DNA of 64,000 bases, taken from the IMG/VR virus record IMGVR_UViG_3300033994_001671, positions 1-64,000 of that record; one strand, written 5' to 3'. The notes under the pieces were generated by a model. It was not told where the DNA came from, ran no database searches, and saw nothing but the letters and a program-made list of their open reading frames with translations. Position 1 is the stretch's first letter; each line of letters opens with the position of its first letter. Shown here piece by piece: positions 8,608 to 48,978 of the stretch. The translations under genes were made by a program, and so were the position numbers. This DNA comes from an uncultured virus (IMG/VR IMGVR_UViG_3300033994_001671) (lineage: Duplodnaviria; Heunggongvirae; Uroviricota; Caudoviricetes).

Positions 8608-8611
8608 AACT

Positions 8612-25869: not shown

Positions 25870-26874
25870 ATGAGTTTAGTAACAATAAATAGTTTGGGAG
25901 GAATACCTCCTTATGTTATTTCAGTTTGTGACATATTTCAATACTCTTGTCAAACTGTGACAACAATATATGATTATATTCCACCATCTGTTAGTTTTAA
26001 TATTCCGAGTCCATATTCATCGGCTCCAAAAGTTTTAATTAAAATAGTCGATTCTACAGGATGTATTTTCACACAAGAATATATGTGTGTAACACCTACT
26101 CCAACCCCAAGTATTACTCCAAGTGTCACCCCGACAATTTCTTTAACTCCTTCAAATACTCCAACACCAAGTATTACACCATCATTTACACCTACACCGA
26201 GTATCACACCAAGTATTACACCTACACAAACAGTTACACCATCACATACCCCAACACAAACAATTACTCCAACAGTTACAAGAACTCCAACACCTACAGT
26301 TACACCTGACACTCCTATTTATGCTTATTTGTTCATTGAACCATACTCAGGTTCTGCTAGTGTTGGTTCTTACATGAATTCACTTGGTTCTAATTTTTAT
26401 GGATTTACAAATACTACTAAACCAAGTAGTTCGGCTAGTACATTTGATTTAGACATGAACAAATATGTTAACTTCTCAGGATGGACAACAGGATTATTTC
26501 CAAATATTATAAAACAATTAGTACCATCGGCAAGTAGTGGACTTGATTCATACGGTAACCCATATCTTAAATATAATTTCCCAACAACAAAAGTACCTGA
26601 AAATACGGTTGGATGTAAAGCTTGGTACACTTGGATAATACCAATTAGCAGAACCAATAATCAATACCAAGTTGAGATTGATTTGGGAATAGTTAATCCA
26701 AATGTCTTTACAAGTGTAAAGACGGAACCGACAATTTACGCTAATACATTTACTTATACAGGTAGTACTATTGCAAATACAACATACAGGGTTTACACAA
26801 CATACCCATCAAATACATTTGAATTGGATAATACTTATGACCTTTATTTTAGAGGAAGTAAGGTTGATATATAA
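25870..26874 (+). CDS. Virion protein: 73-aa Cys-containing domain + Thr-Pro linker + C-terminal domain
   Basis: TPTPSITP repeats at ~26092-26315; C-terminal domain paralogous to that of 37087..38295. Confidence 0.7.
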
Positions 26875-26883: not shown

Positions 26884-28881
26884 ATGAGTTTCCCATATAA
26901 AAATCCAATATCGTCTATCCAACTAAATGGAACACAAAGTGTACCAAGAAACAATACGTATGGTACTACTTTCAGTGTTAATAATACGGGTGGTTATATG
27001 GAGGTTTTCAGTTTATCTGACCTTTATTATACAATACCATCGGGAACAACGGGAAGTATTGAATATTCGGGTAATACTATTCCTATTGAGTTTACAAAAG
27101 GAACGGGAACAGCTTGGTCACCTGATGTAATTACTTTGGCTTCAGATAATATTTCATCAGGTAGAAGACGACTTGGTATGTTGGCTTATGTTTATGAGGT
27201 TGACCAAGTTTACCAATATCATATTAATGATTACGAGACGTTATTTAATGCTGCGACTGCTAGTACGGGATGCGCTCAAGTATCTGATTTTGGAACAACG
27301 ATAAATAATAAAACTGCTGCGGGTCAGTCGTTTATTAATTCTTGGACTGCTAACACTATTGAAGATGTTAGTGGTGCAACATATAGTACTGCGGCATGGA
27401 GAAAGTTTTCGACAGGAACTGGAGGAGGTTCAGGATTTACGTCAGTTAGAATAAATAATGTTAGTCAATTTACGTCATCACCATATAGTTATATTAATTT
27501 TAGTGGTGTTAATGTTGATATATCATCAGTTGGAAACAATACGATTGTATTATCGGCAAGTACTAGCGGAGGTGGTGGAGGAAGTGGTTCGTCAGGTAGT
27601 AGTGGTAGTTCAGGAACATCGGGAACTAATGGTAGTTCAGGTTCTAGCGGGATTAGTGGTTCTTCAGGTACTAGTGGTAGTTCAGGTTCTGCAGGAACAT
27701 CGGGGAGTTCGGGTTCTACAGGTTCGTCAGGAACAAGTGGTAGTAGTGGAACTTCAGGTAGTTCTGGTACATCTGGTTCAAGTGGTAGTAGTGGTTCTTT
27801 AGGAACATCAGGAAGTAGTGGTACCTCAGGTAATGGTGGGTCATCGGGAACAAGTGGTTTAGATGGGATAAGTGGAACGTCAGGTTCTTCAGGGTCAAGT
27901 GGAAGTACTGGCTCTTCAGGAACTAGCGGAACATCAGGTTTAAGTGGTTCTTCAGGAACTTCAGGTAGTTCTGGTACATCAGGTTCATCGGGTAGTTCCG
28001 GTTCTGCCGGAACATCAGGTACAGGATTTACCACAATCACAAGTCCGGGTAGTAATAGAGTATTAACATCTGATGGGACATCTAATGCTGCGGTTGCTCA
28101 GGCTAGAATGACTTTTGATGGTACTACATTATCAGTTACAGGTAATACAAGTGTTAATGGTAATATAAGTACTACAGGTGTAACATCTTTTGGTAACGGA
28201 ACATTTACAAAGGCGGGGTCAGCTACTGGTGATGTTCTTCTTGATAATAATAGTACAGATACTCCGGGTGTTTTGTTTTATTATGCTAATAATTCAAACT
28301 TTGGTATTGATAGTTTTAATGGGTCATTTGATGTTCTAAGTGGACAGTTAGTTCGTATCACAAATAATTTAAATGAAGCAGGAGGTGCGGTAAAAATGGC
28401 TATAGATACCACAGGTAATGTGGTATTTACAGGATTTATAAAGGCTAATGCGTGGAGAGCCGGTCAGGTAATTAACGATATTATTTTGAGTAATACTGAG
28501 GTAACTGTTAGTACTACAACTATAGCTACCAGTAATTCGGATACTGATTTTGTTACTTATAGTTATACACCATTAAGTTCTACAAGTTATTTAGTAATAC
28601 ATTATCATTTAGCATCTTTTGATTTTACTTCTGGTACAGGTAATGATTCATACATATCTAGAATAAAGGTTGATGGTGGTGAAATAACCTATTCAGTACA
28701 AAGCACGGTTAATGGATTTCGTACAGGTGTTTTATTTCCATTAACGGGTAGATACACTAACTCTAATACTACCGCAAAATCGATAGTAGTTGCATGTCGT
28801 AGAAGTTTTGCGGATGATAATATCACAATAGTAAATTCATCTACTTCAATGTGGTTAAGAATAACAGAAGTTGCAAGATAA
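26884..28881 (+). CDS. Tail-fibre-like protein with ~48 Gly-Ser/Thr-Ser triplets
   Basis: GSS/GTS repeat at 27586-28017; N-terminus paralogous to 38326 gene (SDNxSSGRRRLGM); NRVLTSDG..MTFDGTTL fibre-like segment. Confidence 0.75.
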   Translation: MSFPYKNPISSIQLNGTQSVPRNNTYGTTFSVNNTGGYMEVFSLSDLYYTIPSGTTGSIEYSGNTIPIEFTKGTGTAWSPDVITLASDNISSGRRRLGMLAYVYEVDQVYQYHINDYETLFNAATASTGCAQVSDFGTTINNKTAAGQSFINSWTANTIEDVSGATYSTAAWRKFSTGTGGGSGFTSVRINNVSQFTSSPYSYINFSGVNVDISSVGNNTIVLSASTSGGGGGSGSSGSSGSSGTSGTNGSSGSSGISGSSGTSGSSGSAGTSGSSGSTGSSGTSGSSGTSGSSGTSGSSGSSGSLGTSGSSGTSGNGGSSGTSGLDGISGTSGSSGSSGSTGSSGTSGTSGLSGSSGTSGSSGTSGSSGSSGSAGTSGTGFTTITSPGSNRVLTSDGTSNAAVAQARMTFDGTTLSVTGNTSVNGNISTTGVTSFGNGTFTKAGSATGDVLLDNNSTDTPGVLFYYANNSNFGIDSFNGSFDVLSGQLVRITNNLNEAGGAVKMAIDTTGNVVFTGFIKANAWRAGQVINDIILSNTEVTVSTTTIATSNSDTDFVTYSYTPLSSTSYLVIHYHLASFDFTSGTGNDSYISRIKVDGGEITYSVQSTVNGFRTGVLFPLTGRYTNSNTTAKSIVVACRRSFADDNITIVNSSTSMWLRITEVAR

Positions 28882-30728
28882 TGCCAATCCCACCGAATAA
28901 AATAAAATACTCAACGTCCTTTCATCCTAATACGATTAAAGTTAAGGATTGGGTTTTGGGTATTAATGAAGGTGCGGAATACGGGCCAACAAGTGTTACA
29001 GGATTTTGGAATTCTATTATACCACCATCAGGTGGTTATACCATGTATGGAAACAAGGCAGTTGCTGGACCATCCATAGTGGTTGCTCAAAACGACTCAG
29101 AACTTATTGGTTTTACACAAGGATTTGCGGGACAAACATTTAATACTGCTAACGAAGCGTTAGGATGGTACACAGGACAAACAGGTCTTATTTGTGTTAA
29201 CCTTGATTACCCTGATATTATAACTGACGGATTAACATTATTACTTGATGCTGGTTATGTTTCATCATACCCAAGAAGTGGTTCACGATGGGATGATTTA
29301 AGTTTTAGTGGTAACAACGGAACACTAATTAATACTCCAACATTCAATTCAAGTAACAACGGATACCTCACATTTAACGGAAGTAATCAATATGTTAATG
29401 TTGCAGGTACTCCTGTTGGAATAACGGCATATACCAAAAACATTTGGTTTTATCTAAACTCAACGGCTGATAATAATTTATTAAGTAGTGATACTGGTGG
29501 ACACTTTATGTTCTTTGCAGGTTCAAATAAATTATATTGTGGACATTCTGATTGGGGTAATTATACGGTTTTCCCATCGGTCACTAACTTTAGTAATGGG
29601 GTGTGGTATAATGCGTGTGTAACTTTTGATACCATAAATGGATTTGTATTGTATGTTAATGGTGTTCAGGATAGTACATACACCACTCAAAAGACACCTA
29701 TAGGGGGTAATGGTTCAACAAGGATAGGAGCGTTTGGTGATGGAGGTAATCTATTAAATGGTAGGGTTTCAGTTGCTATGACTTACAATAGAGTATTAAG
29801 TTCTACTGAAGTATTAAAAAATTACAATTCATTTTCGTCAAGATTTATTTCACCATCACCTACTCCGACAACAACAATAACCCCTACACCTACAATGACA
29901 GTTACCCCGACGATAACTCCAACAAATACTCAAACACCGACAAATACAATTACTCCAACACCTTCCATAACTCCGACTAGAACTGTAACACCTACCCAAA
30001 CACAGACACCGACAAATACGATTACTCCAACACCAACAAGTGTGGGTGGGGTAATTAGTGGTAATTTATTTATGAAGTTAGATGCTACTAATTATGTTAG
30101 TGGTACTTGGACTGATGAAACGGGAAATGGAAATAATGCAACTATTAATGGTGCCACTTGGTTGTCTACTGACGGAGGTATTTTTGATTTAAATGGGACT
30201 AGTAATACAATAAGTATACCTCATACTGCTAATCTTAGTTTAAATACTACAACCCAAAGAACAATACAAGTTTGGGTTAAATTTGACGTTTTACCTAGTT
30301 CAGGTCAACAAGTTCCGGTCTTTGGAAAACTATCCAGTTCATTTGGATTTGATGGGTATTGGGGTGGGTTATTCTCGAATGCTGGCGTTGTGAGGGTAGT
30401 TACAAATGGAACGGGGGTTCAAAAAATATCCGACTCTACGTTAACCGTTTCAATTAATACTTGGTATTTATTTACATTTGTTTCACGAATTACCTCAACT
30501 GCTAATACCACCAAAGTGTATATTAATAATACCGAATATATAACAACCGCTCATGGTACTGATACATATAGTGAAACTAACCCTCTTTATTTGGGTTACA
30601 TTGGTACTGGTATATCATCACTTTATTTAAATGGTAAAATAGGTGCCTGTTATTTTTATACCACAGGATTAACCGCCAGTGATGTAACAACAAACTATAA
30701 TAATACTAAATCAAAATATGGATTATAA
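28881..30728 (+). CDS. Double LamG/ConA-like lectin-fold protein with Thr-Pro linker
   Basis: GLTLLLDAG..SYP.SG..W.DLS..GNNGTL, NGVWYNACVTFD, YNRVLSSTEVLKNY, then a second LamG copy; ATG 28881 overlaps the upstream TAA. Confidence 0.8.
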   Translation: MPIPPNKIKYSTSFHPNTIKVKDWVLGINEGAEYGPTSVTGFWNSIIPPSGGYTMYGNKAVAGPSIVVAQNDSELIGFTQGFAGQTFNTANEALGWYTGQTGLICVNLDYPDIITDGLTLLLDAGYVSSYPRSGSRWDDLSFSGNNGTLINTPTFNSSNNGYLTFNGSNQYVNVAGTPVGITAYTKNIWFYLNSTADNNLLSSDTGGHFMFFAGSNKLYCGHSDWGNYTVFPSVTNFSNGVWYNACVTFDTINGFVLYVNGVQDSTYTTQKTPIGGNGSTRIGAFGDGGNLLNGRVSVAMTYNRVLSSTEVLKNYNSFSSRFISPSPTPTTTITPTPTMTVTPTITPTNTQTPTNTITPTPSITPTRTVTPTQTQTPTNTITPTPTSVGGVISGNLFMKLDATNYVSGTWTDETGNGNNATINGATWLSTDGGIFDLNGTSNTISIPHTANLSLNTTTQRTIQVWVKFDVLPSSGQQVPVFGKLSSSFGFDGYWGGLFSNAGVVRVVTNGTGVQKISDSTLTVSINTWYLFTFVSRITSTANTTKVYINNTEYITTAHGTDTYSETNPLYLGYIGTGISSLYLNGKIGACYFYTTGLTASDVTTNYNNTKSKYGL

Positions 30729-30733: not shown

Positions 30734-31597
30734 ATGGCAACATCACGACCTTTTGCATATAATACAGGCTCAACAATTTCAGGGACAGAACAAGTTGGAA
30801 GTATTGCTATTGGATACCCAACAAGTGGTTTTACATCCACAGGTTTAAGATGGTGGAATGGGCCTGATGAAGATTTGGGATATGTTATTGCTCACACCGT
30901 ACCGTCAGGAACACAACCAAATCCTGTTGGAGTTCCTGCTTATATCGGTTTTTGGAGAACACCAAGTAAGACAGATAATAACTTTATTAGTTTATCTCAG
31001 TATGTATCAAGTTTTACCGGAACACCACAAACATTTGCAAGTGCTTCAGCGGCTAAGACATGGTTAAACTCGGCGGGATATTGGACATCTTGGGATTTAA
31101 GTTATACTGCAGGAGTATTTAAAACAACTTATAGTGGGTACTTTAATGATAATGTTAATTTCTTTGCAACCGCAACTCCCGCATCAGTAGGTGGAAATCC
31201 TGCGACTTCAGTACAAACCACCGAGATAACAGAACCCCCAACCAGTGACGGTGAGAATTTCAGTTGTCAATGGTTAGGTTATTTCAAACCAACTACTACA
31301 GAAACTTACACATTCTTTACTTCATCTGATGATGCTTCCTATGTTTGGGTTGGTAGTAATAGTATTTCAGGATTTACAACAACAAACTCAACAGTTAATA
31401 ACGGTGGATTACATGGGACACAAGAACGTTCAGGTACAATTGCCTTAACTGCTGGTACATATTATCCGTTACGAGTACAATTTGGAGAACTAAGTGGTGG
31501 TGACGTGATGACTTTTAGTTATTCAACTCCGACTATAACAAAAACAACCAACGTAACAGGTTTAATTTTTTATAATTTGGTAACAAGCGGATTTTAA
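30734..31597 (+). CDS. PA14-domain carbohydrate-binding virion protein
   Basis: FSCQWLGYFKP..TETYTFFTSSDDASYVWVG..NGGLHG..LTAGTYYPLRVQFGE..GGD PA14 signature. Confidence 0.8.
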   Translation: MATSRPFAYNTGSTISGTEQVGSIAIGYPTSGFTSTGLRWWNGPDEDLGYVIAHTVPSGTQPNPVGVPAYIGFWRTPSKTDNNFISLSQYVSSFTGTPQTFASASAAKTWLNSAGYWTSWDLSYTAGVFKTTYSGYFNDNVNFFATATPASVGGNPATSVQTTEITEPPTSDGENFSCQWLGYFKPTTTETYTFFTSSDDASYVWVGSNSISGFTTTNSTVNNGGLHGTQERSGTIALTAGTYYPLRVQFGELSGGDVMTFSYSTPTITKTTNVTGLIFYNLVTSGF

Positions 31598-31667: not shown

Positions 31668-32912
31668 ATGAAAATTTTTATACAAGTTGCCTCTTACAGA
31701 GACCCCCAACTAATCCCAACTATACAGTCAGCATTGGAAAATGCTAAACGACCTGAAAACTTAGTTTTTGGTATTGCTCGTCAGTTTCATCCTGATGATA
31801 ATTTTGATAATTTAGATGAATATAGGAATGATGAAAGATTTAGAATAATCGATATTCCATACACCGAATCCAAAGGAGCTTGTTGGGCAAGAAATCAAAT
31901 ACAACAAGTATATGGTAAGGAAACTTACACTCTTCAAATTGACTCACACATGAGGTTTGCTCAAAATTGGGATGATGAGATGATTAAGATGGTTAAACAA
32001 CTTCAAAAGAAAGGATATAAGAAACCTTTATTAACAGGTTATGTTTCATCCTTTGACCCTGACAATGACCCCAACCTACGTGTTAACGAACCATGGAGAA
32101 TGGCGTTTGATAGATTTATTCCTGAAGGTGCGGTTTTCTTTTTACCTGAAACAATTCCTGGTTGGCAAAATTTAACTGAACCTGTTACCGCAAGATTTTA
32201 CTCGGCTCACTTCTGTTTTACTCTTGGAAAATTTGCTAAAGAAGTTCAACACGACCCTGAGTTTTATTTTCATGGTGAAGAGATTTCAATCGCTGCAAGA
32301 GCATACACTCATGGATATGATTTATTCCACCCACATAAAGTTTTAATTTGGCATGAATATACTCGTAAGGGTAGAACTAAACAATGGGATGACGATAAAC
32401 AATGGGTTGATAAGAATAATTTTGCTCATAAGAAAAATCGTTCTCTATTCGGTATGGATGGTGAGGAAGATATGAATCACGGGAAGTATGGGTTTGGTAA
32501 AGTTAGAACTTTAAGAGATTATGAAAAATATTCAGGTCTTTTATTTTCAAAGAGAGCCGTTCAACAATATACGTTAGATAAAGGTTATCCACCAAATCCA
32601 AATAACTTCAATTCAGAAGAAGAATGGTTAAAGTCATTTACATCGGTATTCAAACATTGTATTGATATTGGGTTTACTCAAGTACCTGAAAAGGATTATG
32701 ACTTTTGGGTTGTTGCGTTCCATAATGAATTAGATGAAACCATTTACAGACAAGATGCTGATAAAGGTGAGGTTGATAGAATGTTAAGAGACCCTGATGG
32801 TTATTGTAAAGTTTGGAGAGAGTTCTTAACTGATTCAAAACCTAAATATTGGGTTGTTTGGCCTCACTCGGAATCTAAAGGATGGTGTGATAGAATAACA
32901 GGAAATTTATAA
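31668..32912 (+). CDS. GT60-like polypeptide N-acetylglucosaminyltransferase (Skp1 GlcNAc-transferase-like)
   Basis: IFIQVASYRDP, SKGACWAR, LQIDSHMRF..NWD, FHGEEIS..ARAYTHGYD match recalled family motifs. Confidence 0.8.
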   Translation: MKIFIQVASYRDPQLIPTIQSALENAKRPENLVFGIARQFHPDDNFDNLDEYRNDERFRIIDIPYTESKGACWARNQIQQVYGKETYTLQIDSHMRFAQNWDDEMIKMVKQLQKKGYKKPLLTGYVSSFDPDNDPNLRVNEPWRMAFDRFIPEGAVFFLPETIPGWQNLTEPVTARFYSAHFCFTLGKFAKEVQHDPEFYFHGEEISIAARAYTHGYDLFHPHKVLIWHEYTRKGRTKQWDDDKQWVDKNNFAHKKNRSLFGMDGEEDMNHGKYGFGKVRTLRDYEKYSGLLFSKRAVQQYTLDKGYPPNPNNFNSEEEWLKSFTSVFKHCIDIGFTQVPEKDYDFWVVAFHNELDETIYRQDADKGEVDRMLRDPDGYCKVWREFLTDSKPKYWVVWPHSESKGWCDRITGNL

Positions 32913-32915
32913 GAT

Positions 32916-33626
32916 ATGAAATTTACATTTGCTACTTTTTGTTTTGGTGAAAGATATTATAACCAAGTTAATAGATTTATTGGTGATATCGTAGAATCGG
33001 ATTATAAAACAAATTTGGTTGTTATTACCGATGACCCAAGTAAGATTAATAATCAAGAATTTGTTCACACTTTCAACATTAATGATTTTAATCCAAATTA
33101 TTTGGAGTATGCTAAAAACTACTATGATTTTGATTTTTCAGTTAAGAGATATTCGTTAAGAGCTGCTTTAAGTATTGGTTTTACTAAAATGATTTTAGTT
33201 GATTGTGATATGAGAGTTAACCCATCTTTCTTTAATGAAGAAAAGATTTTAGGAGCGTTTGATGAGAATTGTTTATCAGGGCCAGTAACATATAATTTTA
33301 ACGAACAAGTTCATACCAATAGTGAATTAGGTAGACGATTACTTGAGTATGAAAAGTATTTCAATCATGAGGTTAATAAAGATAAGTTGGAGGTTATGCC
33401 TGAAGATTGTATCCAATACTTGAGTATTGATGAAGATAAGTTTAATAGTTTTTTAGATACTTGGGACAAGTGTATCGAATATAAAAAAGAAAAAGGTTTG
33501 AGAAACATACCCGCAGGTAACATAGACGAGATGTGTTTCTCGGCGTTATCTAATGGAATTGAAATAAAAAATAACGCTTATAAAGCATCAAATATAATAT
33601 ACGCAGAACATGACAAATGGTACTAA
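32916..33626 (+). CDS. Putative GT-A fold glycosyltransferase
   Basis: TFCFGERY, VVITDDP, ILVDCD (DxD); operon context. Confidence 0.55.
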   Translation: MKFTFATFCFGERYYNQVNRFIGDIVESDYKTNLVVITDDPSKINNQEFVHTFNINDFNPNYLEYAKNYYDFDFSVKRYSLRAALSIGFTKMILVDCDMRVNPSFFNEEKILGAFDENCLSGPVTYNFNEQVHTNSELGRRLLEYEKYFNHEVNKDKLEVMPEDCIQYLSIDEDKFNSFLDTWDKCIEYKKEKGLRNIPAGNIDEMCFSALSNGIEIKNNAYKASNIIYAEHDKWY

Positions 33627-34464
33627 AATAATTTCAGCAATTTATGAATTAAAATATGTTGAAGGGATTAATAGTGAAAGATATAAAAATTTTCCATTAT
33701 TGGTTGCAACGATTAAAAACATAATTTATCCTGAATATCGTTACGTAATTTATACTGACCAAAATTCATATGATAAGTTTAATTTAAAGTATGAATTTAA
33801 TTTCCCAAATGTTGAATTTAAATTTAAAGAATTAAATACATCTGAAACTTGTGAATTAATTGACAGAATTAGAACTCAAGAATTATCAGGTGGAATTAAC
33901 TATGATAGAATTTATTGTGTAAACAATTATTTGGAAGTTGTTTTAAATAAACTTCAATTCTTAATTGATGAGTCACATGATTGTGATAATATCTTTTGGA
34001 TTGATGCTGGTTTGATTGGAACATCTTGTCATGACGGGTGGAGAGATTATATGGCTCCGTTAATTAACTCAAAAAACTTTTTGGATAAGGTGGTTGATAA
34101 GATAAATCAACATGGATTTATCCATTTAAAAGGTAATTCAATTGTCATGAATTATGAAACGGTTGCTAAGTTTAACGACCTATTTGGTGTTGAATTAAAG
34201 GTTGTTCCTGGATGTCTATTTGGTGGAACATCAGAAAAAGTTAGACATATTTTAGACGGATATTTAGACATTTTTAATCAATACTTAACCACACATAACC
34301 AACTTATTAGTGAACAAGAGGTTCTTACGGCTATTACAGGTAAACATTCGGATGAATGTCACGCTTTTGAATTTGGTGATTGGTTAGACTTACAAAAAGC
34401 GTTTTTAGACATTTTAGACATTTATGATGAGACAAAATATGTAAGGGAGAAGTGTTATGTTTAG
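33610..34464 (+). CDS. WlaTC/HtrL-like putative glycosyltransferase
   Basis: VIYTD, NKLQFL, IFWIDAGL, GCLFGG, SEQEVL; paralogous to the N-half of the 35017 gene. Confidence 0.6.
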   Translation: MTNGTKIISAIYELKYVEGINSERYKNFPLLVATIKNIIYPEYRYVIYTDQNSYDKFNLKYEFNFPNVEFKFKELNTSETCELIDRIRTQELSGGINYDRIYCVNNYLEVVLNKLQFLIDESHDCDNIFWIDAGLIGTSCHDGWRDYMAPLINSKNFLDKVVDKINQHGFIHLKGNSIVMNYETVAKFNDLFGVELKVVPGCLFGGTSEKVRHILDGYLDIFNQYLTTHNQLISEQEVLTAITGKHSDECHAFEFGDWLDLQKAFLDILDIYDETKYVREKCYV

Positions 34465-35020
34465 TCTTAACATTGTTTGTACTTCAATTGGGAGAGAAAC
34501 TCTACCAAGATTAATTGAGTCATTCAAAGACCAATTAGACCCAACAGATATTTTTACAATAATCTCAGATATTAATCACGACTTTGTTTCAGAAGTATTA
34601 TCAAGATATGAGTTTAAATTCAAAGTTAATCACATATTAAATCAAGGGGAACAAAAATGGAAATACGGACATCCGTTAATTAATGAAAACATTAATTCAT
34701 TAGAAGGTGATTTTATAATGTTTGCCGATGATGATGATAGATACACTGAAGACGCATTTAAAGTAATCAAAGAAACTATTAAAGATAAAAACAAATTATA
34801 CATATTCAAACACAATTGGTTAGGTGATATTAATTGGAGATTAAAAGATTTCACAAGAGGTAATGTAGGGAAATGTATGGGAGTGATTCCAAACACACAT
34901 AATTTACCGATGTTCCAAGAAGATGTTTTTGGGGATGTTATTTTTTATGAAGAGATAGGTCAAATGTTTGAAAGTGAATTTGTTGATTACATAATCTATA
35001 AAGTTAGACATACGGAATGA
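34457..35020 (+). CDS. GT2-like glycosyltransferase
   Basis: CTSIGRETLPRLIES, GDFIMFADDDD. Confidence 0.75.
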   Translation: MFSLNIVCTSIGRETLPRLIESFKDQLDPTDIFTIISDINHDFVSEVLSRYEFKFKVNHILNQGEQKWKYGHPLINENINSLEGDFIMFADDDDRYTEDAFKVIKETIKDKNKLYIFKHNWLGDINWRLKDFTRGNVGKCMGVIPNTHNLPMFQEDVFGDVIFYEEIGQMFESEFVDYIIYKVRHTE

Positions 35021-36687
35021 GTAATATTACATTAGTTACAGGATTGTGGAATATTGGAAGAGAAAATCTTGAAGAAGGTTGGTCTCGTTCTTTTTCACAT
35101 TATTTAGAAAAATTTGAACAACTATTAAAAGTTGAAGAAAACTTAATAATTTTTGGTGAAAAGGAATTGGAGGAATTTGTTTGGGAAAGAAGAGACCAAA
35201 GTAATACCCAATTTATTTTAAGAGATAAGAGTTGGTTTGTTGAAAATGACTTTTACAATAAAATACAAGAAATTAGAAATAATCCTGAATGGTATAATCA
35301 ATCAGGGTGGTTAAAAGAATCAACACAAGGTAGATTGGAAATATACAATCCACTTGTTATGTCAAAAATGTTTATATTAAATGATGCAAGGATTTTTGAT
35401 AAGTTTAATTCAGAGTTTTTATTTTGGATTGACGCTGGACTTACAAATACTGTTCACCCCGGATATTTCACACATGATAAGGTGTTAGATAATTTAAGTA
35501 AGTATATAGATAAGTTTACATTTGTTTGTTTTCCATACGATGCAAGTAATGAGATACACGGATTTTCATATCCAAAGATTAATCAGTGGGCTGAAGATGA
35601 TGTAAAAAAAGTTGCTCGTGGTGGATTTTTTGGAGGTCCTAAAGAAACCATATCACAGATGAATGGTGAATACTATAACCTATTGAATGATACACTATCA
35701 AGTGGGTACATGGGAACGGAAGAGTCAATATTTTCAATAATGGTTTATAAGTTAAGTGAATACATAAATTATTTTGAAATTGAATATAATGGTTTATTTG
35801 GGAAATTCTTTGAGGATTTAAAAGATGATGTTTTAGTTAAAAAGACAGAGTTTGTTAAAATTCAAAATGATTTAGATATAGATAAAGTTGCGTTGTATGT
35901 AATAACATTCAATTCACCAAAACAATTTGAAACATTAATTAAATCTATGATTGAATATGATAGGGATTTCTTGGAAAAACCAAAGAAATTTTTATTGGAT
36001 AACTCTACAGATTTATCAACAACTGAAGAATACTTAAAACTTTGTAAAGAATATGACTTTGAACATATTAAAAAAGATAACATAGGTATTACAGGTGGAA
36101 GACAATGGACTGCGGAACACTTTGATGAAACGGGGTTGGACTATATGTTATTCTTTGAGGATGATATGTTTTTTTACTCACAAAAAAATGAAGTGTGTAG
36201 AAATGGGTTTAACAGATATGTAAGTAATCTATATCAAAAAAGTTTAGAGATAGTTAACAAAGAAAACTTTGATTTTTTAAAATTAAATTTTTCAGAGTTT
36301 TATGGTGATAATAGTACTCAGTGGAGTTGGTATAATGTTCCACAAAATTTCAGAGAACAACATTGGCCAAAAAATCCAAGATTACCTCAACAGGGTTTAG
36401 ACCCAAATGCTCCAAAAACAAAATTCAACGAGATTAAAACACATAAAGGTTTACCATACGCTTCAGGTGAAATTTATTTGTGTAACTGGCCAATAATCCT
36501 TTCAAAAAGTGGGAGTTATAAATGTTATTTGGAAACAAAATATCAACACCCATATGAACAAACTTTAATGTCTCATAACTTCCAAAACACAATTAAAGGT
36601 AAATTAAAACCAGGTATTTTATTACTCACTCCTACCGAACATGATAGATTTGAACATTATGATAGTAATTTAAGAAAAGAATGTTGA
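35017..36687 (+). CDS. Two-domain glycosyltransferase: HtrL-like + GT2-like
   Basis: ITLVTGLWNIGR, SKMFIL, FWIDAGL, GGFFGG, GTEE; then VITFNS, LLDNST, NIGITGGR, FFEDDM. Confidence 0.75.
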   Translation: MSNITLVTGLWNIGRENLEEGWSRSFSHYLEKFEQLLKVEENLIIFGEKELEEFVWERRDQSNTQFILRDKSWFVENDFYNKIQEIRNNPEWYNQSGWLKESTQGRLEIYNPLVMSKMFILNDARIFDKFNSEFLFWIDAGLTNTVHPGYFTHDKVLDNLSKYIDKFTFVCFPYDASNEIHGFSYPKINQWAEDDVKKVARGGFFGGPKETISQMNGEYYNLLNDTLSSGYMGTEESIFSIMVYKLSEYINYFEIEYNGLFGKFFEDLKDDVLVKKTEFVKIQNDLDIDKVALYVITFNSPKQFETLIKSMIEYDRDFLEKPKKFLLDNSTDLSTTEEYLKLCKEYDFEHIKKDNIGITGGRQWTAEHFDETGLDYMLFFEDDMFFYSQKNEVCRNGFNRYVSNLYQKSLEIVNKENFDFLKLNFSEFYGDNSTQWSWYNVPQNFREQHWPKNPRLPQQGLDPNAPKTKFNEIKTHKGLPYASGEIYLCNWPIILSKSGSYKCYLETKYQHPYEQTLMSHNFQNTIKGKLKPGILLLTPTEHDRFEHYDSNLRKEC

Positions 36688-36716: not shown

Positions 36717-37085
36717 ATGGAATTTTTTATTAACAAAGGTGCAACACTGCCTGTTCTTAAAATGCAAGTGGTTAAAGATGGTATTGCTGACATAACAGAG
36801 TTTATGTCATTAATAGAAAACTCGTTGATTTATTTTTCCATGATAGATGTTAAAACGGGAGGTTACAAGATTCTGAATAAGAAAGGAGGGTTTGTTGAAA
36901 AGACATTTATTGACCCAAACGCTGAGACAGAGTACTATGTTTATTATAAATTCACTTCAAGCGATACAAGTAGAGAGGGACTTTATGAAGGAGAGTTTGT
37001 TTTTATCACTGATACAGGAACTTATATTTTACCAATCAGAGAAAAACTTACGATAAAAATTGGTAATAGTTACGTATCTATTTAA
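36717..37085 (+). CDS. BppU-like (baseplate upper protein N-terminal-like) small structural protein
   Basis: FFINKGATLPVL...YKFTSSDT...GLYEGEF...LP pattern. Confidence 0.55.
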   Translation: MEFFINKGATLPVLKMQVVKDGIADITEFMSLIENSLIYFSMIDVKTGGYKILNKKGGFVEKTFIDPNAETEYYVYYKFTSSDTSREGLYEGEFVFITDTGTYILPIREKLTIKIGNSYVSI

Positions 37086-37086
37086 T

Positions 37087-38295
37087 ATGGAATGGTTTAT
37101 TAAGAAAAATTCAACGTTACCAGTTTTCCAAGTTGAGATATCAAAAGACGGAAGAAGTGATTTTGGTTTAGATGAAAATATTTCGGGTAATACAATTTTA
37201 ATTTCGGTATATGATGAAGTTAATAAGAAATATATTGTAGCGTCTAAAGAATGTTATATTACAACAAGTGCGTCTACTGTTAATCCTTTAGATATTACTT
37301 ATTATGTAAACTATCAATTTACAAGTAGAGAAACTAAAAATGAGGGTAAGTTTTTAGTTCAGTTTTTAAAACAATCATCTCAGGGTATTGTTATTATACC
37401 ATTACCTCAAAAAATTTATGTAAGTGTTCTTAGTAGTTTTAGTTTAAACTCTTACTCTTATCCGACTAATAATCCTTACATTATTGATAGACCATGTTGT
37501 AACGCACCAGCTCTACCTGCAACACCTACACCAACACCATCTATTACTCCAAGTGTTACTCCAACAATGTCTTTAACACCATCACTAACTCCAACTCTCA
37601 CACCTACAACAACTACAACACCTACATTTACTCCTACACCATCTATTACAACACCACAATATTATGCTTATGTATTCGCAGAACCACAAGATTCTTCGGC
37701 AAGTGGTTCGTTGTATGGATTAGGAAGTTATATGTATTACTTATCGGATGGTATAACACCTGATACTAATGTTAATTGGTACGGATGGGGTAACTCGGGA
37801 GCTCTTCCATTACCAACAAATCCAAACTACAGTTATATGATGAACAAATACTCATCATACTCAGGATTTACAGGTGGAACAGGAAACTTTGTTAAACCTA
37901 CAGACTTAAAAGGTGCGTTAAATCAATTCCCAAATACTATCAATGATAGTTTTGGATGTTTAATTAACCAATACACTTTTGAAACAATAGAAGTTAATAA
38001 TAGTGATATTAACACTAGTTTACAGTACATGTATACGATTTGGATACCACTTGATGGTGTCGGAGGAACTTTAAATAATATGAGTGTAAATGTTGGTTAT
38101 CAATCACAACCTTGTGACTTTGATATTTTAGCAACTCCTGACCCTAAAATTTCGGTTGGGGATATTACAATAACTCCAGGTGGAGCGATACCTGCGGGAA
38201 CTTATAGAGTATTATACTTATCAAACGATGGATTGTTACCTCCAAAACTTCCTGATAATAACAATTATTATTTCAAAGGGGTGTATAAAACCTAA
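37087..38295 (+). CDS. BppU-like domain + Thr-Pro linker + domain shared with 25870 gene
   Basis: MEWFIKKNSTLPVF paralogous to 36717 gene; TPTPT linker; YAYVFAEP..GSYM..TYRVLY..YYFKG. Confidence 0.7.
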   Translation: MEWFIKKNSTLPVFQVEISKDGRSDFGLDENISGNTILISVYDEVNKKYIVASKECYITTSASTVNPLDITYYVNYQFTSRETKNEGKFLVQFLKQSSQGIVIIPLPQKIYVSVLSSFSLNSYSYPTNNPYIIDRPCCNAPALPATPTPTPSITPSVTPTMSLTPSLTPTLTPTTTTTPTFTPTPSITTPQYYAYVFAEPQDSSASGSLYGLGSYMYYLSDGITPDTNVNWYGWGNSGALPLPTNPNYSYMMNKYSSYSGFTGGTGNFVKPTDLKGALNQFPNTINDSFGCLINQYTFETIEVNNSDINTSLQYMYTIWIPLDGVGGTLNNMSVNVGYQSQPCDFDILATPDPKISVGDITITPGGAIPAGTYRVLYLSNDGLLPPKLPDNNNYYFKGVYKT

Positions 38296-38325
38296 AAAAA
38301 AGATAATTATTAGTAAGTAAAAAAA

Positions 38326-41300
38326 ATGGCAATACCGTATCAAAATCCAATAAGTGCGTCCCAAATTACAGGACCTTTCAGTGTAGCGAGAACAAGTCCA
38401 TACGGAACCAATTTTAATGTTTTAAATGTTGGTGGATGGCAAGAGGCGGCATACCTTACTAATTTAGGTTTAACATTTAGTGGGCAAGGACAACAACAAT
38501 TAAGTGTTAATAATATACCTATTAATATTAACATTGGTAACGGTACATTTTCTCCAACATATTTAACTTTAAATTCTGACAATTTCTCTTCGGGTAGAAG
38601 AAGATTGGGTATGATTGTTTGGGTTAATGAAACTGAAACGGCATATCAATATCAAATAGACAATTACAATGATTTATGGGATGCTGCAGTAAGTGCTAAT
38701 TCTGTAACTCAATTATCTTACGAAACTATTATAAAGAATAATACACCTGAAGGTCAGGCATTTATTAATGCTTGGACAGGCTCAACTATTGAAGGTGTTA
38801 GTGGTGTTACAAGAGAAAATGCGAGATGGAGAGTTTTTGCTCAAGGTACTGAATTAACGGGTGGTACTTATTTTTCAGGTACAAGTACATTAGAATTATA
38901 TAATAGTGATGGAACTATTATTTCTGTAACAGGTATTACGGCATCTGGTTCTAATGGTAGTTCTGGAACATCAGGTTCTGCGGGTACAAGTGGTTCTTCA
39001 GGTAGCTCTGGTTCTTCAGGTTCAGCAGGTACAAGTGGAACTTCAGGTAGTTCTGGTTCATCAGGTAGTTCTGGTTCTGCGGGTACATCAGGAACAAGTG
39101 GAACGTCTGGTTCATCAGGGGATAGCGGTTCTTCGGGAAGTGCTGGAACTAGCGGTAGTTCAGGTAGTGCTGGAACATCAGGTATTAATGGTGTTGATGG
39201 TGCAAGTGGAACATCAGGTACAAGTGGTTCATCAGGACTATCAGGTACTGGAGGTTCTTCGGGTACATCAGGAACATCTGGCTCCTCAGGTTCATCAGGT
39301 TCTTCAGGAAGTGTGGGAACAAGTGGAACGTCAGGTTCTTCGGGAAGTTCTGGTACAAGCGGAACTTCAGGAACTTCAGGTTCAAGTGGTTCATCGGGAA
39401 GTTCAGGTTCAAGTGGTTCATCGGGTACATCAGGTAGTACTGGTACTAGTGGTAGTAGTGGAACAAGCGGAACGTCGGGTTCATCAGGTTCTGCGGGAAG
39501 TAGTGGTTTATCAGGTAGTGTTGGAACATCTGGCTCAAGTGGTAGTTCAGGTAGTTCTGGTTCATCAGGTACATCTGGCTCAAGTGGTAGCTCTGGTTCA
39601 ACAGGTTCGTCAGGTAGTAGTGGTATAACTGGGTCTTCAGGTACGAGTGGTAGTTCTGGCACATCAGGTTCATCTGGTAGTTCAGGTTCTTCAGGTTCAT
39701 CTGGTAGTTCAGGTTCTTCAGGTAGTACTGGTTCATCAGGAACTAGCGGAACATCAGGAACATCAGGTACAAGTGGTAGTTCAGGTTCTACAGGAACATC
39801 GGGTTCTACAGGAACATCGGGTTCATCAGGTAGTAGTGGCTCAAGTGGAAGTTCAGGATTGACAGGTTCATCAGGAACATCGGGTTCATCAGGGACATCG
39901 GGTTCATCAGGTAGTTCTGGTTCAAGTGGTAGTAGCGGAAGTACAGGGTCTTCGGGCACAAGTGGTAGTTCTGGTACATCAGGTTCATCAGGAAGTTCAG
40001 GTTCATCAGGTTCTAGCGGTAGTGTTGGAACTTCGGGAACAAGTGGTTCAAGTGGAAGTTCAGGTTCTTCAGGAAGTGTAGGAACATCAGGTACAAGTGG
40101 AAGTTCAGGTTCGTCTGGCTCAAGTGGAAATACAGGTTCAAGTGGAACGAGTGGTTCATCAGGTACATCTGGCTCAAGTGGTAGTTCAGGTTCGTCTGGC
40201 TCAAGTGGTTCAAGTGGAAGTTCAGGTTCATCTGGAAGTGTAGGAACATCAGGTACAAGTGGTAGTTCAGGTTCTTCAGGTAGTTCAGGTGTTAATGGTT
40301 CTTCAGGGACTAGTGGTAGTTCGGGAACATCTGGTTCTTCAGGAAGTTCGGGTTCATCAGGTTCTAGTGGTAGTTCAGGAACATCTGGCTCAAGCGGGTC
40401 TTCTGGTTCAAGTGGAAGTACTGGTTCTTCAGGAAGTGCAGGTACATCGGGTAGTGTAGGAACTAGCGGTAGTTCTGGTTCATCTGGTTCTTCAGGTAGT
40501 ACTGGCTCAAGTGGTACTTCAGGTTCTTCGGGAAGTTCTGGTACTAGTGGTTCATCAGGTAGTGTAGGTACTAGTGGTTCATCAGGTAGTTCTGGTTCAA
40601 GTGGTAGTAGCGGAAGTACAGGGTCTTCTGGTACAAGTGGGAGCTCAGGAACATCTGGTACAAGCGGTAGTTCTGGGTCATCTGGTTCAGTTGGTACAAG
40701 CGGTTCATCAGGTAGTGTTGGAACATCTGGTTCATCAGGTTCTGTTGGTACTTCAGGAACATCGGGTTCATCAGGTAGTACTGGTTCAAGTGGAAGTTCA
40801 GGAAGTAGTGGTAGTGTAGGAACAAGTGGTTCTTCAGGGACATCTGGCTCAACAGGTACTTCAGGAACATCAGGTTCAAGTGGGTCTTCAGGTAGTTCGG
40901 GTTCATCAGGAAGTTCAGGTACAAGCGGAACATCAGGTTCAGTAGGAACAAGTGGTTCATCGGGAAGTTCAGGGTCAACAGGAACTTCAGGTTCAAGTGG
41001 GTCTTCAGGTAGTTCAGGAAGTAGCGGAACATCTGGTTCTAGTGGAAGTGTTGGAACTTCTGGTACATCAGGAACAAGTGGTTCATCGGGAAGTTCTGGT
41101 TCTGCCGGTACAAGTGGAAGTGTAGGAACAAGTGGTACTTCAGGTTCATCTGGCTCAAGTGGAAGTTCAGGTTCAACAGGTAGTTCAGGTACTAGCGGTT
41201 CATCTGGAAGTTCTGGTTCTGCAGGTACAAGTGGAAGTTCTGGTTCTTCAGGTAGTACGGGTTCAAGAGGAACTAGCGGAACATCAGGAAGTTCTGGTTC

Positions 41301-44300
41301 TGTTGGAACTAGTGGAACGTCTGGTTCAGTAGGAACTAGCGGAACATCTGGAACAAGTGGTTCATCAGGTTCTAGCGGTAGCGCTGGAAGCTCAGGAACG
41401 TCAGGTTCTAGCGGTAGCACAGGTTCAAGTGGTTCTACTGGCACGTCAGGTTCTTCAGGAACAAGTGGTTCTGTAGGTACAAGCGGAACATCTGGTTCCT
41501 CAGGAAGTGTAGGTACTTCAGGTACTAGTGGAAGCTCAGGAAGTGTAGGAACATCTGGTTCAAGTGGTACTACTGGTACCTCAGGAACATCAGGTAGTTC
41601 AGGTTCTAGCGGAAGTTCAGGTTCAAGTGGAACTAGTGGTAGTTCAGGAAGTTCTGGTTCATCGGGTAGTAGCGGTAGTTCTGGTAGTGTAGGAACATCT
41701 GGTTCTTCAGGAAGTTCTGGTTCAAGTGGTTCATCCGGAAGTTCAGGTTCTACAGGTTCAAGAGGAACATCGGGTACTTCAGGAACTAGCGGTTCAAGTG
41801 GAAGTACAGGAACTAGTGGTACATCAGGTTCAACGGGGACTTCAGGAACAAGTGGTTCAACTGGAACATCAGGTACAAGTGGAAGTACAGGGTCTTCAGG
41901 AAGCTCTGGTACGTCGGGTAGTGTAGGTACTAGCGGTAGTTCAGGCTCTAGCGGAAGTACAGGAACTAGTGGAACCTCTGGTTCAACAGGGACTAGCGGT
42001 TCATCAGGTAGTTCAGGTTCAAGTGGAAGTTCAGGTAGTAGTGGTAGCGTTGGAACTTCTGGTACATCAGGTTCAAGTGGTTCTTCAGGAAGTGCAGGTT
42101 CTAGTGGAAGTACTGGAACCTCAGGAACATCAGGTAGTTCTGGTTCTTCAGGTAGTTCAGGTTCAAGTGGTAGTGTTGGAACATCAGGTTCATCGGGTAG
42201 TGTAGGTACTAGCGGTTCTTCTGGTTCAAGTGGAAGTTCAGGTTCTAGCGGAAGTACAGGGTCAAGCGGAACTAGTGGTAATTCAGGTTCGTCTGGTTCA
42301 AGTGGAAGTTCAGGTTCATCTGGAAGTGTAGGAACAAGTGGAACCTCAGGTTCAGTAGGTACAAGTGGTACATCAGGAAGTTCAGGCTCAAGTGGTAGTA
42401 CGGGTTCATCTGGTACTAGCGGCTCTTCGGGAAGTACTGGGTCATCTGGAAGTTCAGGTTCAACAGGAACTAGCGGTTCTTCAGGAACATCAGGTAGTAG
42501 CGGTTCTAGTGGTAGTGCTGGAACAAGTGGTAGTTCTGGTTCTGTTGGTACATCTGGGTCAAGCGGAAGTAGTGGTTCATCGGGAAGTGTAGGCACATCC
42601 GGTTCTTCAGGCTCTAGCGGTAGTGCTGGAAGTTCAGGAAGTGTTGGTACATCAGGGACTAGTGGTAGTTCAGGTTCTTCTGGTTCAAGTGGTAGTGTTG
42701 GTACATCAGGTACTAGCGGTTCATCAGGTACTAGCGGTTCATCAGGGTCAAGCGGAACTAGCGGTAGTTCAGGTTCTAGCGGTTCTTCAGGAAGTTCTGG
42801 GTCATCTGGCTCTTCAGGTAGTACAGGTTCAAGAGGAACTAGCGGTACTTCAGGAACTAGTGGTAGTGTAGGTACATCCGGTTCTTCAGGTAGTTCGGGA
42901 ACATCAGGAAGTAGTGGAAGTTCAGGTTCTGCAGGTACAAGTGGAAGTGTAGGAACATCTGGAACTTCTGGTTCAAGTGGGTCATCAGGTTCAAGTGGTA
43001 GTGTTGGAACTAGCGGGTCATCAGGAACAAGTGGTTCGTCAGGTTCTAGCGGTAGTGCTGGAAGCTCAGGAAGTACTGGTTCATCAGGTTCTGCGGGAAG
43101 TGCTGGTACATCAGGGGTTAATGGTTCTTCAGGAACATCAGGTTCTGCTGGCTCAAGTGGAAGTTCAGGTTCTTCAGGTAGTTCGGGTTCAGTAGGTACA
43201 AGCGGAACTTCAGGTTCATCAGGTAGTGCTGGCTCGTCAGGGTCTAGCGGTTCTGTTGGTACTTCAGGTAGTAGTGGAACATCTGGAAGCTCTGGCTCAA
43301 GTGGTAGTGCGGGTTCATCAGGGAGTAGTGGAACTTCAGGTTCATCAGGAAGTTCAGGTTCAAGTGGTAGTACGGGGTCTTCAGGAAGTTCTGGTTCAAC
43401 AGGTTCTAGAGGAACTAGCGGAACATCAGGTTCATCTGGAAGTGTTGGTACTTCAGGAACGTCAGGTTCAGTAGGTTCGTCTGGTTCTTCAGGAACTTCA
43501 GGTTCAGTAGGTACTAGTGGAACATCTGGAAGCTCTGGCTCAAGTGGTAGTGCGGGGTCATCAGGGAGTACTGGTACAAGTGGAAGTTCGGGTTCAACTG
43601 GTACTTCAGGTTCAAGTGGAAGTAGTGGCTCATCAGGTTCTTCAGGGAGTACTGGTACAAGTGGAACATCAGGTTCTAGTGGAAGTAGTGGTAGTTCAGG
43701 GTCATCTGGTTCTGCAGGTACATCAGGAAGTAGTGGAAGTTCAGGGTCTAGCGGTAGTTCTGGTTCATCAGGTACATCGGGAACTAGCGGAAGTTCAGGA
43801 ACTTCAGGTAGTAGTGGGTCATCAGGTTCAACGGGTAGTTCAGGAAGTAGTGGAACAAGTGGTTCATCTGGTACTTCAGGTTCATCTGGCTCAAGTGGTA
43901 GTACGGGTTCTTCAGGAAGCTCAGGCTCAAGCGGAAGTTCTGGTTCAACAGGTTCTAGAGGAACAAGTGGAACTTCTGGTTCGTCAGGAACTAGCGGAAC
44001 GTCAGGAACATCAGGCTCAAGCGGAAGTGTTGGAACATCTGGTTCGTCAGGAAGTACAGGAACATCAGGTAGTGCTGGTTCTTCTGGCTCAAGTGGTAGT
44101 TCAGGTTCAAGTGGAAGTACTGGAACATCAGGTTCATCAGGTTCTAGCGGTAGTACTGGAAGCTCAGGAACGTCAGGTTCTGTAGGTACAAGCGGGACAT
44201 CAGGAACTTCGGGAAGTACTGGTTCTAGTGGTAGTTCAGGAAGTTCTGGTTCATCGGGTAGTACAGGTACTTCAGGAAGCTCAGGTTCAAGTGGAACTAG

Positions 44301-45615: not shown

Positions 45616-45651
45616 TATTTATAATAAACTAAATTAAATTATTATAATACT

Positions 45652-46256: not shown

Positions 46257-46262
46257 AAAAAT

Positions 46263-47165: not shown

Positions 47166-47177
47166 TTTGTATGTAAT

Positions 47178-48050: not shown

Positions 48051-48060
48051 AAATTTAATT

Positions 48061-48969: not shown

Positions 48970-48978
48970 TTATATAAT

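Follow-up and report, generated by a model that had tools for sequence, protein, structure and literature searches.

What does a phage decorate with a compact run of glycosyltransferase (GT) genes placed in the middle of its structural region? The question is raised by a stretch of 64,000 nucleotides from an uncultured virus of the Caudoviricetes, hereafter called the window, which corresponds to bases 1-64000 of the 74,988-bp IMG/VR record IMGVR_UViG_3300033994_001671. The CheckV completeness of this record is 26%, so the virus should be a jumbo phage of roughly 290 kb, and related near-complete records measure 272-295 kb. At 31668-36687 the window carries an island of five GT-like genes, of which the first and the last are conserved among relatives and the inner ones are exchanged as a cassette. 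The reading favoured here, to which a probability of about 0.65 is given, is that the island O-glycosylates appendage proteins of the phage in the cytoplasm, in mucin-type fashion and with a glycan that varies from strain to strain. The open reading frames (ORFs) of the island, with lengths in amino acids (aa), and its exchangeable part are as follows.

31668-32912, + strand: ORF1, 414 aa, a soluble GT60-family (PF11397) glycosyltransferase, the conserved 5′ bookend and presumed initiating enzyme
32916-33626, + strand: ORF2, 236 aa, a GT-A glycosyltransferase with a GT6-like fold and a DxD motif
33610-34464, + strand: ORF3, 284 aa, an HtrL-like GT-A-type enzyme, distantly paralogous to the N-terminal domain of ORF5
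34457-35020, + strand: ORF4, 187 aa, a small GT2-family glycosyltransferase
35017-36687, + strand: ORF5, 556 aa, an N-terminal HtrL_YibB domain followed by a probable GT-A/GT2-like domain, the conserved 3′ bookend
32916-35016, + strand: the exchangeable inner cassette (here ORF2-ORF4), over which DNA similarity to relatives is lost

An earlier, sequence-only reading of this DNA had described five coupled genes with three overlaps and one 3-nt gap, and the ORF list gives the same coordinates and junctions: the gap lies between ORF1 and ORF2, and the following junctions overlap by 17, 8 and 4 nt. The same reading had called the 31668 product GT60-like, which is borne out by a full-length match of ORF1 to the Pfam family PF11397 'GlcNAc' (GT60) far above the cut-off (E 1.4e-68, 232.4 bits against 21), covering model positions 2-43 and 92-349 of 352; the match to phrog_24687 reaches E 5e-170. 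D92-S93-H94 of ORF1 is unchanged in 10/10 aligned homologues, those of the phages XacN1 and Xoo-sp13 among them, and it fits the DxH-type metal/nucleotide-sugar motif, which we take to be the mark of the GT27/GT60 lineage.

The other enzymes are more divergent. For ORF2, neither sequence nor profile searches gave a match among Pfam families or Protein Data Bank (PDB) sequences, and a profile comparison with ORF5 showed no relation. Its AlphaFold2 model, with a predicted local distance difference test (pLDDT) score of 90.5, has a GT-A fold closest to GT6 enzymes; the top Foldseek matches are BoGT6a (template modelling (TM) score 0.63-0.65), the ABO transferases GTA/GTB and alpha-1,3-galactosyltransferase (alpha-1,3-GalT), with E ~1e-7 at 12-14% identity, and D96-x-D98 is unchanged across 19 homologues. 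ORF3 has no Pfam match but is related to the HtrL domain of ORF5 (residues 1-255) in hhalign (98.3%, E 1.6e-14, 236 columns); its model (pLDDT 73) resembles GT6/alpha-3-GalT enzymes and LARGE1 at a moderate TM of 0.40-0.45. ORF4 matches the GT2 family PF00535 marginally (24.8 bits, cut-off 23.3), and its D91-D94 run is unchanged in 7 homologues. In ORF5, residues 3-254 match HtrL_YibB PF09612 (E 5e-13, 49.7 bits, cut-off 24.1). The C-terminal half of ORF5 has no PF00535 match and no significant match to the ORF4 profile, and it is weakly GT-like through PF20691 (14.6 bits, below the 27.5 cut-off), the family of TET-associated DNA glycosyltransferases (TAGT); E381-D382-D383 is unchanged among homologues in this half, and an Atlas lead goes to GT2 clusters, one of which is 25% PF00535. 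NCBIfam contributed weak GT2 and YibB matches only, and nothing usable came from sequence and profile searches of ORF2, ORF3 and ORF5 against PDB sequences. Of the six GT-like domains claimed beforehand, five are therefore confirmed, and the sixth, at the C-terminus of ORF5, is only probable. The maximum of the Kyte-Doolittle 19-residue mean is at most 1.07 in all five proteins, that is to say, none has a membrane segment, as had been proposed.

Scanning IMG/VR with ORF1 gave 413 related stretches, of which the best 80 (75-100% identity) were kept. A GT60 gene and an ORF5 homologue are both present in 75 of these 80 loci; in the remaining five, ORF5 lies beyond the 10-kb flank (L028, L029, L030, L073) or the contig ends (L059). 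The ORF5 homologues are 57-100% identical in 69 loci. Between the two genes the 75 loci have an interval of 1.0-9.3 kb with 1-13 ORFs, and the corresponding interval in G002, a 98% complete record, extends over ~17.5 kb and 21 genes. Grouping the 279 interval ORFs with thresholds of ≥25% identity and 60% coverage yields 61 protein families. A Pfam match was obtained for 25 of the 56 family representatives scanned, and all of these concern sugar transfer or sugar modification: GT2, GT10, GT25, GT7C, GT1, FkbM/TylF/CmcI/RfbT methyltransferases, DegT aminotransferases, acetyltransferases and a nucleoside diphosphate (NDP)-sugar synthase. G002 adds GT11, GT61, a Fringe-like GT31, an epimerase/dehydratase, WcbI, a kinase, an aldolase and two nucleotidyltransferases. 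Hydrophobicity, measured as above, reaches at least 1.6 in only 4/279 cassette ORFs, all of them 64-66 aa long and at least three lying within longer listed ORFs.

The limits of the cassette are sharp. Compared with the loci L009 and L014, the window shows 92-95% DNA identity in the flanks, which is lost at 32912-32915, where the stop codon of GT60 lies, and returns at 35017, where ORF5 starts, with no alignable DNA between these two points. Since both breaks coincide exactly with these gene limits, the five-gene 'operon' consists of two conserved bookends and one of many interchangeable cassettes, and the exchange of the cassette is recent and precise. The genes flanking the island also turn over among the loci. 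Longer ORF5 homologues of 791-795 aa, with ~235 aa added N-terminally, were seen at L018:14987-17374, L056:11677-14052 and L064:14825-17203. Relatives that lack GT60 were sought through 80 loci collected by a DnaB-like helicase, five of whose records were searched: GT60 is present in the two large ones (76% and 82% complete) and absent from three that are fragments of 17-21%, and no informative GT60-free relative was found among the five.

What recurs beside the island is a particular kind of protein. A Thr/Pro tract was defined as a 30-residue window with at least 20% P and at least 40% S+T, and a Gly-Ser tract was defined analogously. An ORF with a Thr/Pro or Gly-Ser tract is found among the three nearest ORFs on either side of the island in 73/80 loci, and directly upstream of GT60 in 48/80. 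Tract ORFs make up 94 of 291 flank ORFs (59 distinct flank layouts) as compared with 7 of 317 genome-wide in G002, a count that describes an enrichment and carries no formal probability, since the 80 loci are related and the events are not independent. Neighbouring virion proteins had been suggested as acceptors, the giant Gly-Ser fibre included. For the Thr/Pro tracts, which are the recurring partner, this suggestion gains support; the giant Gly-Ser fibre is less supported, because Gly-Ser collagen-like ORFs stand beside the island only in L005-L016 (L015 excepted).

The same arrangement extends to distant phages. Homologues of GT60 (44-47% identical) and of ORF5 (40-43%) are found in XacN1, Xoo-sp13 and the Stenotrophomonas phages RAS14 and CM1; for XacN1 and Xoo-sp13 the values are 46-47% for GT60 and 43% for ORF5, which is ORF330 in XacN1. 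In XacN1 (ORF334-ORF330) and in Xoo-sp13 the two homologues bracket inner genes in the same order as here, and a giant protein with PSPTPTPT tracts (XacN1 ORF325, Xoosp13_296) is encoded 3-5 kb from the operon, which in XacN1 is convergent with the giant gene. The inner genes of XacN1 differ from those of the window: they encode a 765-aa carbamoyltransferase and two other proteins, of which only ORF332 weakly matches ORF3.

GT60 genes also occur in bacteria, where 185,579 species genomes were scanned and 40 loci obtained; genuine tracts were separated by eye from out-of-frame artefacts of high-GC DNA. In Gemmatimonadota, 6/8 loci with upstream sequence have an ORF whose end is an S/T/P tract of ~30-90 residues and whose stop lies 25-189 bp before GT60 (L120 and L121 have no clear tract), and GT60 is followed directly by an ORF5 homologue. 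The module of Gemmatimonadaceae (L123:7230-10972; also L118, L119, L122, L125 and L142) consists of an ORF of ~210-245 aa with an S/T/P tail, GT60 and the HtrL two-domain enzyme, with no cassette; a PqqD domain in the S/T/P-tail ORF is confirmed by Pfam in L123 only. In Saprospiraceae contigs, too, an ORF5 homologue comes directly after GT60. The Saprospiraceae/Lewinellaceae/Bacteroidia contigs L110, L111, L114 and L115 have a Thr/Pro-tract ORF 382-625 bp upstream on the other strand, and one of these four carries a sorting domain of the type IX secretion system (T9SS). In Burkholderiales-type loci (L128, L133-L141), GT60 lies within type VI secretion clusters, a context given by Pfam in L128, L133 and L134 (TssF, TssG, ImpA, DotU, OmpA, VgrG, Rhs) and taken for the other seven from a 626-aa ORF at the same position. 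In L128 and L133 the C-terminus of VgrG is a (TP)n run, and a 661-aa frame without domain assignment carries a (TP)n tract in L141; this suggests that VgrG spikes may be glycosylated in these loci, and a literature search on O-glycosylation of type VI secretion or VgrG by glycosyltransferases gave nothing specific. The carriers of these clusters (L133:2907-15520, L128:1423-14389, L134:9375-12620 by coordinates) include Achromobacter, Paraherbaspirillum, Cupriavidus, Paraburkholderia, Dyella and a Neisseriaceae genome, with GT60 homologues at 39-47% identity.

Protein fusions point in the same direction. Among 150 GT60 representatives listed, 14 long ones were scanned for domains: 4/14 are GT60-HtrL_YibB fusions, and 3/14 combine multiple GT60 domains with 2-oxoglutarate (2OG)-Fe(II) oxygenases of the PF13640 (prolyl-4-hydroxylase, P4H-type) family. 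The latter three (P0122, P0123, P0125) are 1641-2461 aa long with about four GT60 domains each, and two of them also contain AhpC/TSA. The HtrL and oxygenase fusions argue for protein substrates and for cooperation of GT60 with HtrL; likewise, since ORF5 stands next to GT60 in bacteria and is fused to it elsewhere, the two are expected to act together.

In the window itself, the sequence-only reading had named lectin, Thr-Pro and giant Gly-Ser neighbours, and Laminin_G_3 and PA14/GLEYA domains, Thr-Pro tracts and a 2429-aa fibre are all found there. The neighbouring genes are listed below.

25870-26874, + strand: 334-aa protein with a ~70-residue Thr/Pro/Ser tract (~aa 75-146), candidate acceptor
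26884-28881, + strand: 665-aa collagen-like (G-S/T-S) fibre protein, PF01391 at E 4e-18, G-X-Y runs 235-315 and 319-378, possible acceptor
28851-30728, + strand: 625-aa protein with two Laminin_G_3 lectin-like domains and a Thr/Pro tract between them (~aa 334-397), candidate acceptor
30734-31597, + strand: 287-aa PA14/GLEYA carbohydrate-binding-type protein, directly upstream of GT60
36717-37085, + strand: 122-aa conserved gene after the island, with a fold that the next gene repeats in its N-terminal domain
37060-38295, + strand: 411-aa protein with this N-terminal domain, a Thr/Pro tract (~aa 152-199) and a C-terminal domain, candidate acceptor
38326-45615, + strand: 2429-aa collagen-like protein with almost no proline, G-X-Y triplets and many tail-fibre PHROG matches, possible acceptor

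How such an island might work can be outlined as follows. What the sequences show is the gene content, the two bookends with a variable cassette, the exact limits of exchange, soluble enzymes and the repeated company of Thr/Pro-tract proteins; which molecule is glycosylated, with which sugars and in what order, and that the virion carries the glycan, is what we infer. In the host cytoplasm, the soluble GT60 enzyme would place the first sugar on hydroxyls of the Thr/Pro-rich stalks of phage fibre or adhesin proteins, and by family precedent this sugar would be alpha-linked N-acetylglucosamine (GlcNAc) taken from UDP-GlcNAc. ORF5 would then add a conserved inner part of the glycan, and the inner cassette, here with its GT6-like, HtrL-like and GT2 enzymes, would add the outer, strain-specific sugars. 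Because the examined cassettes encode no membrane or lipid-carrier proteins, transfer is expected to proceed stepwise and directly onto a soluble acceptor, so that no lipid carrier, flippase or polymerase would take part and all steps would be cytoplasmic, before or during assembly. The nucleotide sugars would come from the host here and be made by the phage where the cassette encodes their synthesis. It is also possible that the proline-free collagen-like fibres are glycosylated, for which the comparative support is confined to the subclade of the window; analogues are the worm cuticle collagen stabilised by glycosylated threonine and the glycosylated BclA of Bacillus spores.

Several known systems resemble this scheme in part. 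One review describes GT60 enzymes as the polypeptide alpha-GlcNAc-transferases by which mucin-type O-glycans are initiated in Dictyostelium and T. cruzi (PMC8724618). ORF1 shares with the protist enzymes the Pfam family, by a strong full-length match, and the conserved DxH-type motif; it is soluble like the cytoplasmic Skp1 hydroxyproline GlcNAc-transferase of Dictyostelium, and its likely acceptors are Thr/Pro-rich, mucin-like tracts. Unlike the protist enzymes, the ORF1 homologues are encoded by bacteriophages and bacteria, the activity, donor and acceptor of ORF1 are predictions, and the island couples GT60 to a two-domain enzyme of the HtrL type and to a cassette that can be swapped. To our knowledge, such a coupling is not known from protists.

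Virus-encoded glycosylation has the chlorovirus PBCV-1 as a precedent, which is cited in the accessible part of the XacN1 paper (PMC5852040). The likeness of PBCV-1 and mimivirus to the present case lies in a virus-encoded, cytoplasmic glycosylation of structural proteins that relies on neither the endoplasmic reticulum nor the Golgi. Mimivirus glycosylates its structural proteins by itself; the glycans are N-linked in PBCV-1 and of a fibril polysaccharide chemistry in mimivirus, and both are giant viruses of eukaryotes with unrelated initiating enzymes. In mycobacteriophages, as described by Freeman et al. 2023 and summarised in the portion of a later article that is available, phage transferases glycosylate the C-termini of capsid and tail-tube proteins (PMC12619734). 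The targets there are capsid and tail tube, whereas those proposed for the island are fibre stalks. The system of Freeman et al. reportedly relies on different enzyme families and hosts, with no GT60 and no bookended variable cassette. In addition, the available part of the same later article mentions a 'moraphage' lineage with four core GT orthogroups (PMC12619734), which may or may not be the present clade. Bacterial O-antigen and flagellin islands share with this island the conserved flanks and the hypervariable set of GT and sugar-modifying genes; unlike them, it has no lipid carrier, no Wzx/Wzy and no membrane proteins, and its acceptor is probably a phage protein.

XacN1 is the nearest case with evidence from virions. 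In the accessible text, its virions contain 'at least two glycoproteins' by Schiff stain, and the authors' suggestion is that the stained glycoproteins are products of two annotated GTs, one being the GT60 homologue ORF334 (PMC5852040). The sequence-only reading had proposed a soluble GT60 initiator and extending enzymes that O-glycosylate Ser/Thr-rich appendage proteins, and this proposal has gained comparative support from the Thr/Pro neighbours, the fusions, the XacN1 stain and the missing DNA precursors considered below.

A number of points weigh against it. The glycan on this phage is predicted from genes alone, and the acceptor specificity of phage GT60 would be an extrapolation from the protist enzymes. 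In the available text of the XacN1 paper, the stained bands are not assigned to proteins, and XacN1 has a further GT (ORF328). Besides the kinship of the 80 loci, 7/80 have no tract ORF nearby, with an upstream flank of at least 5.5 kb in three (L017, L027, L051) and of less than 2.5 kb in four, and 6/7 Thr/Pro-tract ORFs of G002 lie more than 20 kb away from the island. The adjacency may partly be due to the island lying within a fibre module, a setting in which Thr/Pro linkers are frequent, and a fusion of GT60 to a Thr/Pro tract was found in 0/150 representatives. The sub-threshold resemblance of ORF5 to DNA glycosyltransferases, the closeness of the island to DNA polymerase genes and the family affinities of its enzymes count on the same side, and they lead to the rival explanations.

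It is conceivable that phage DNA is the acceptor and that the island hypermodifies it with a variable glycan to evade restriction, as known from T-even phages, RB69/DLP3 and TET-linked clusters. In the portions of two sources that are available, phage GT clusters add mono- to tri-saccharides to 5-hydroxymethylcytosine (5hmC) or 5-hydroxycytosine (5hoC) (10.1101/2023.12.21.572611; PMC13326640); glycan diversification would suit an arms race against nucleases, and a DNA polymerase gene adjoins the island in G002 and is close to it in XacN1. The TAGT resemblance of the ORF5 C-terminal half amounts to 14.6 bits in the window and 19.7-26 bits in relatives, below the cut-off of 27.5 in both. We hold this explanation to be very unlikely. 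As far as the same available text goes, phage DNA glycosylation starts from 5hmC, 5-hydroxymethyluracil (5hmU) or 5hoC, made by variant thymidylate-synthase homologues or by a methyltransferase with TET (PMC13326640; 10.1101/2023.12.21.572611), and the genes that make the hydroxypyrimidine usually cluster with the GTs (10.1101/2023.12.21.572611). The precursor enzymes were searched for in five carrier records, namely G001 (100% complete), G002 (98%), G003 (91%), G004 (82%) and XacN1: Tet_JBP was found in 0/5, by a search that was also silent in control genomes, and a thymidylate-synthase homologue in 3/5, being absent from G002 and G004. The three homologues lie far from the island and carry L143/C146/D169/N177 in an alignment with E. 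coli ThyA, the ordinary dTMP-synthase signature by the criteria in the available text of PMC13326640. Those of G001 (L086) and G003 (L087) show, as an observation apart, a ~40-residue insertion after the catalytic-Cys region relative to ThyA, and the Pfam match of the latter is split in two. Moreover, the type VI loci and the Gemmatimonadaceae loci with PqqD/S-T-P tails have no DNA context, and the oxygenase fusions of GT60 point to proteins.

Remodelling of a host glycoconjugate (lipopolysaccharide (LPS) core, O-antigen, capsule or glycoproteins) for superinfection exclusion or takeover, with the virion left undecorated, would account for other features: HtrL/YibB matches the NCBIfam models of E. 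coli YibB, the families HtrL, GT25, GT10 and GT11 are best known from LPS/O-antigen synthesis, the cassettes contain GT25, GT10, GT11, RfbT and WcbI typical of bacterial surface polysaccharide synthesis, and they vary as O-antigen loci do. We regard it as unlikely, since no membrane protein, polyprenyl-phosphate transferase, flippase or polymerase was found in the five genes, the 56 cassette representatives and the 21 G002 genes scanned, the conserved first enzyme comes from a polypeptide-glycosylating family, and the recurrent Thr/Pro-tract neighbours in phages and bacteria would be left unexplained. An acceptor of yet another kind, be it a phage protein outside the virion, a small molecule or an oligosaccharide in free form, is very improbable: the acceptor is derived from family and neighbourhood only, and ORF2 and the HtrL-like domains have no characterised close relatives, but Thr/Pro-tract adjacency in unrelated genomes and the stained virion glycoproteins of XacN1 speak for a virion protein. 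If the acceptor is such a protein, the sugar could still be attached through hydroxyproline in the Thr/Pro tracts instead of Ser/Thr, as in Dictyostelium Skp1. This variant of O-glycosylation of appendage proteins would agree with the three fusions of GT60 to PF13640 oxygenases, with two PF13640 proteins encoded by G002 and with Pro being as abundant as Thr in the tracts; it is rather improbable, because PF13640, the sole hydroxylase family searched, occurs in only 1/5 carrier records and not in the window's own 26%-complete record. In view of the 1/5 count, the idea that the island needs a P4H-type oxygenase as its partner is also rejected at present.

Cytoplasmic O-glycosylation of appendage proteins thus being the preferred reading, a wider one may be put forward tentatively, although we hold it to be doubtful: GT60 and the HtrL two-domain enzyme may form a general prokaryotic core of cytoplasmic mucin-type O-glycosylation for Thr/Pro tails of jumbo-phage fibres, type VI VgrG spikes and small S/T/P-tail proteins (e.g., the PqqD one of Gemmatimonadaceae), which in freshwater jumbo phages may have become a landing pad for a serotype-like, fast-exchanged cassette and so give a strain-specific 'glycocalyx'. 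Such a coat would tune adsorption, stability, or escape from recognition by hosts and grazers, and it may also stabilise the ~0.6-micrometre proline-free collagen fibre in the subclade of the window.

Phage-encoded virion glycosylation as such is already in print for mycobacteriophages and has been suggested for XacN1. Literature searches gave no paper on a GT60 lead enzyme, a conserved GT60/HtrL core, a precisely bounded hypervariable cassette, the abundance in freshwater jumbo phages, or the bacterial and type VI parallels; for GT60 in phages and for PF11397, the sole relevant result was a virome preprint with a CAZy list. A few giant viruses and the mycobacteriophages are established cases of self-encoded virion glycosylation, and here it would be led by a family that, as far as the available text of its source goes, has so far been characterised only in protists (PMC8724618). 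If the reading is true, the system would be common (413 IMG/VR loci, >7,000 proteins at 90% clustering) and its glycan as variable as O-antigen. It would form a second, non-protein layer of phage surface diversity, with consequences for host range, particle stability, recognition by defences and predators, and phage engineering, and with the type VI and Gemmatimonadaceae contexts, cytoplasmic mucin-type glycosylation would reach into bacteria as well.

The surroundings of the island deserve some further description. It had been placed inside the fibre cluster, which is correct for the subclade of the window, where extra fibre genes follow at 37060-53475, but not as a general feature: in many relatives a small gene and then an ORF of 900-956 aa come next, the latter identified as DNA polymerase B by Pfam in G002 only. 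In that record (L091:2300-5035), the island and its small follower gene are succeeded directly by DNA polymerase B, and together with the extra fibre genes of the window's subclade this indicates that the island marks a module boundary for the gain and loss of fibre genes. The follower gene itself (36717-37085) has a homologue downstream of ORF5 in 64/80 loci and a weak Atlas lead to BppU_N (12% of one cluster); its product is possibly a virion-anchoring domain. The 2429-aa protein consists of 43% Ser, 30% Gly and 12% Thr and contains 694 G-X-Y triplets, in which X-Y is mostly S-S and T-S, with a longest unbroken run of 576. Collagen geometry would give it an estimated length of roughly 0.6 micrometres if it forms a triple helix, and a long ORF on the opposite strand (38868-45104) is an apparent artefact of the repeat.

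As for the window as a whole, its GC content is ~31% and higher only in the Gly/Ser-repeat genes. PHROG and Pfam scans place replication genes at both ends and, between them, a long + strand structural block with baseplate wedge genes at 8155-10483 and then fibre-like genes to ~53.5 kb. A scan for promoters and terminators in the window was no better than shuffles (39 promoter-like sites as against 44.1 expected, 4 terminator-like ones as against 3.2). By Pfam, SprB repeats are present in two fibre-like proteins, at 23662-25842 and 49247-51277. The closest cellular GT60 homologues (62-71%) come from contigs of metagenome-assembled genomes (MAGs) of Saprospiraceae and other Bacteroidota (L107-L115), some of which are perhaps mis-binned phage. 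Together, the SprB repeats and these homologues hint at a host among the Bacteroidota.

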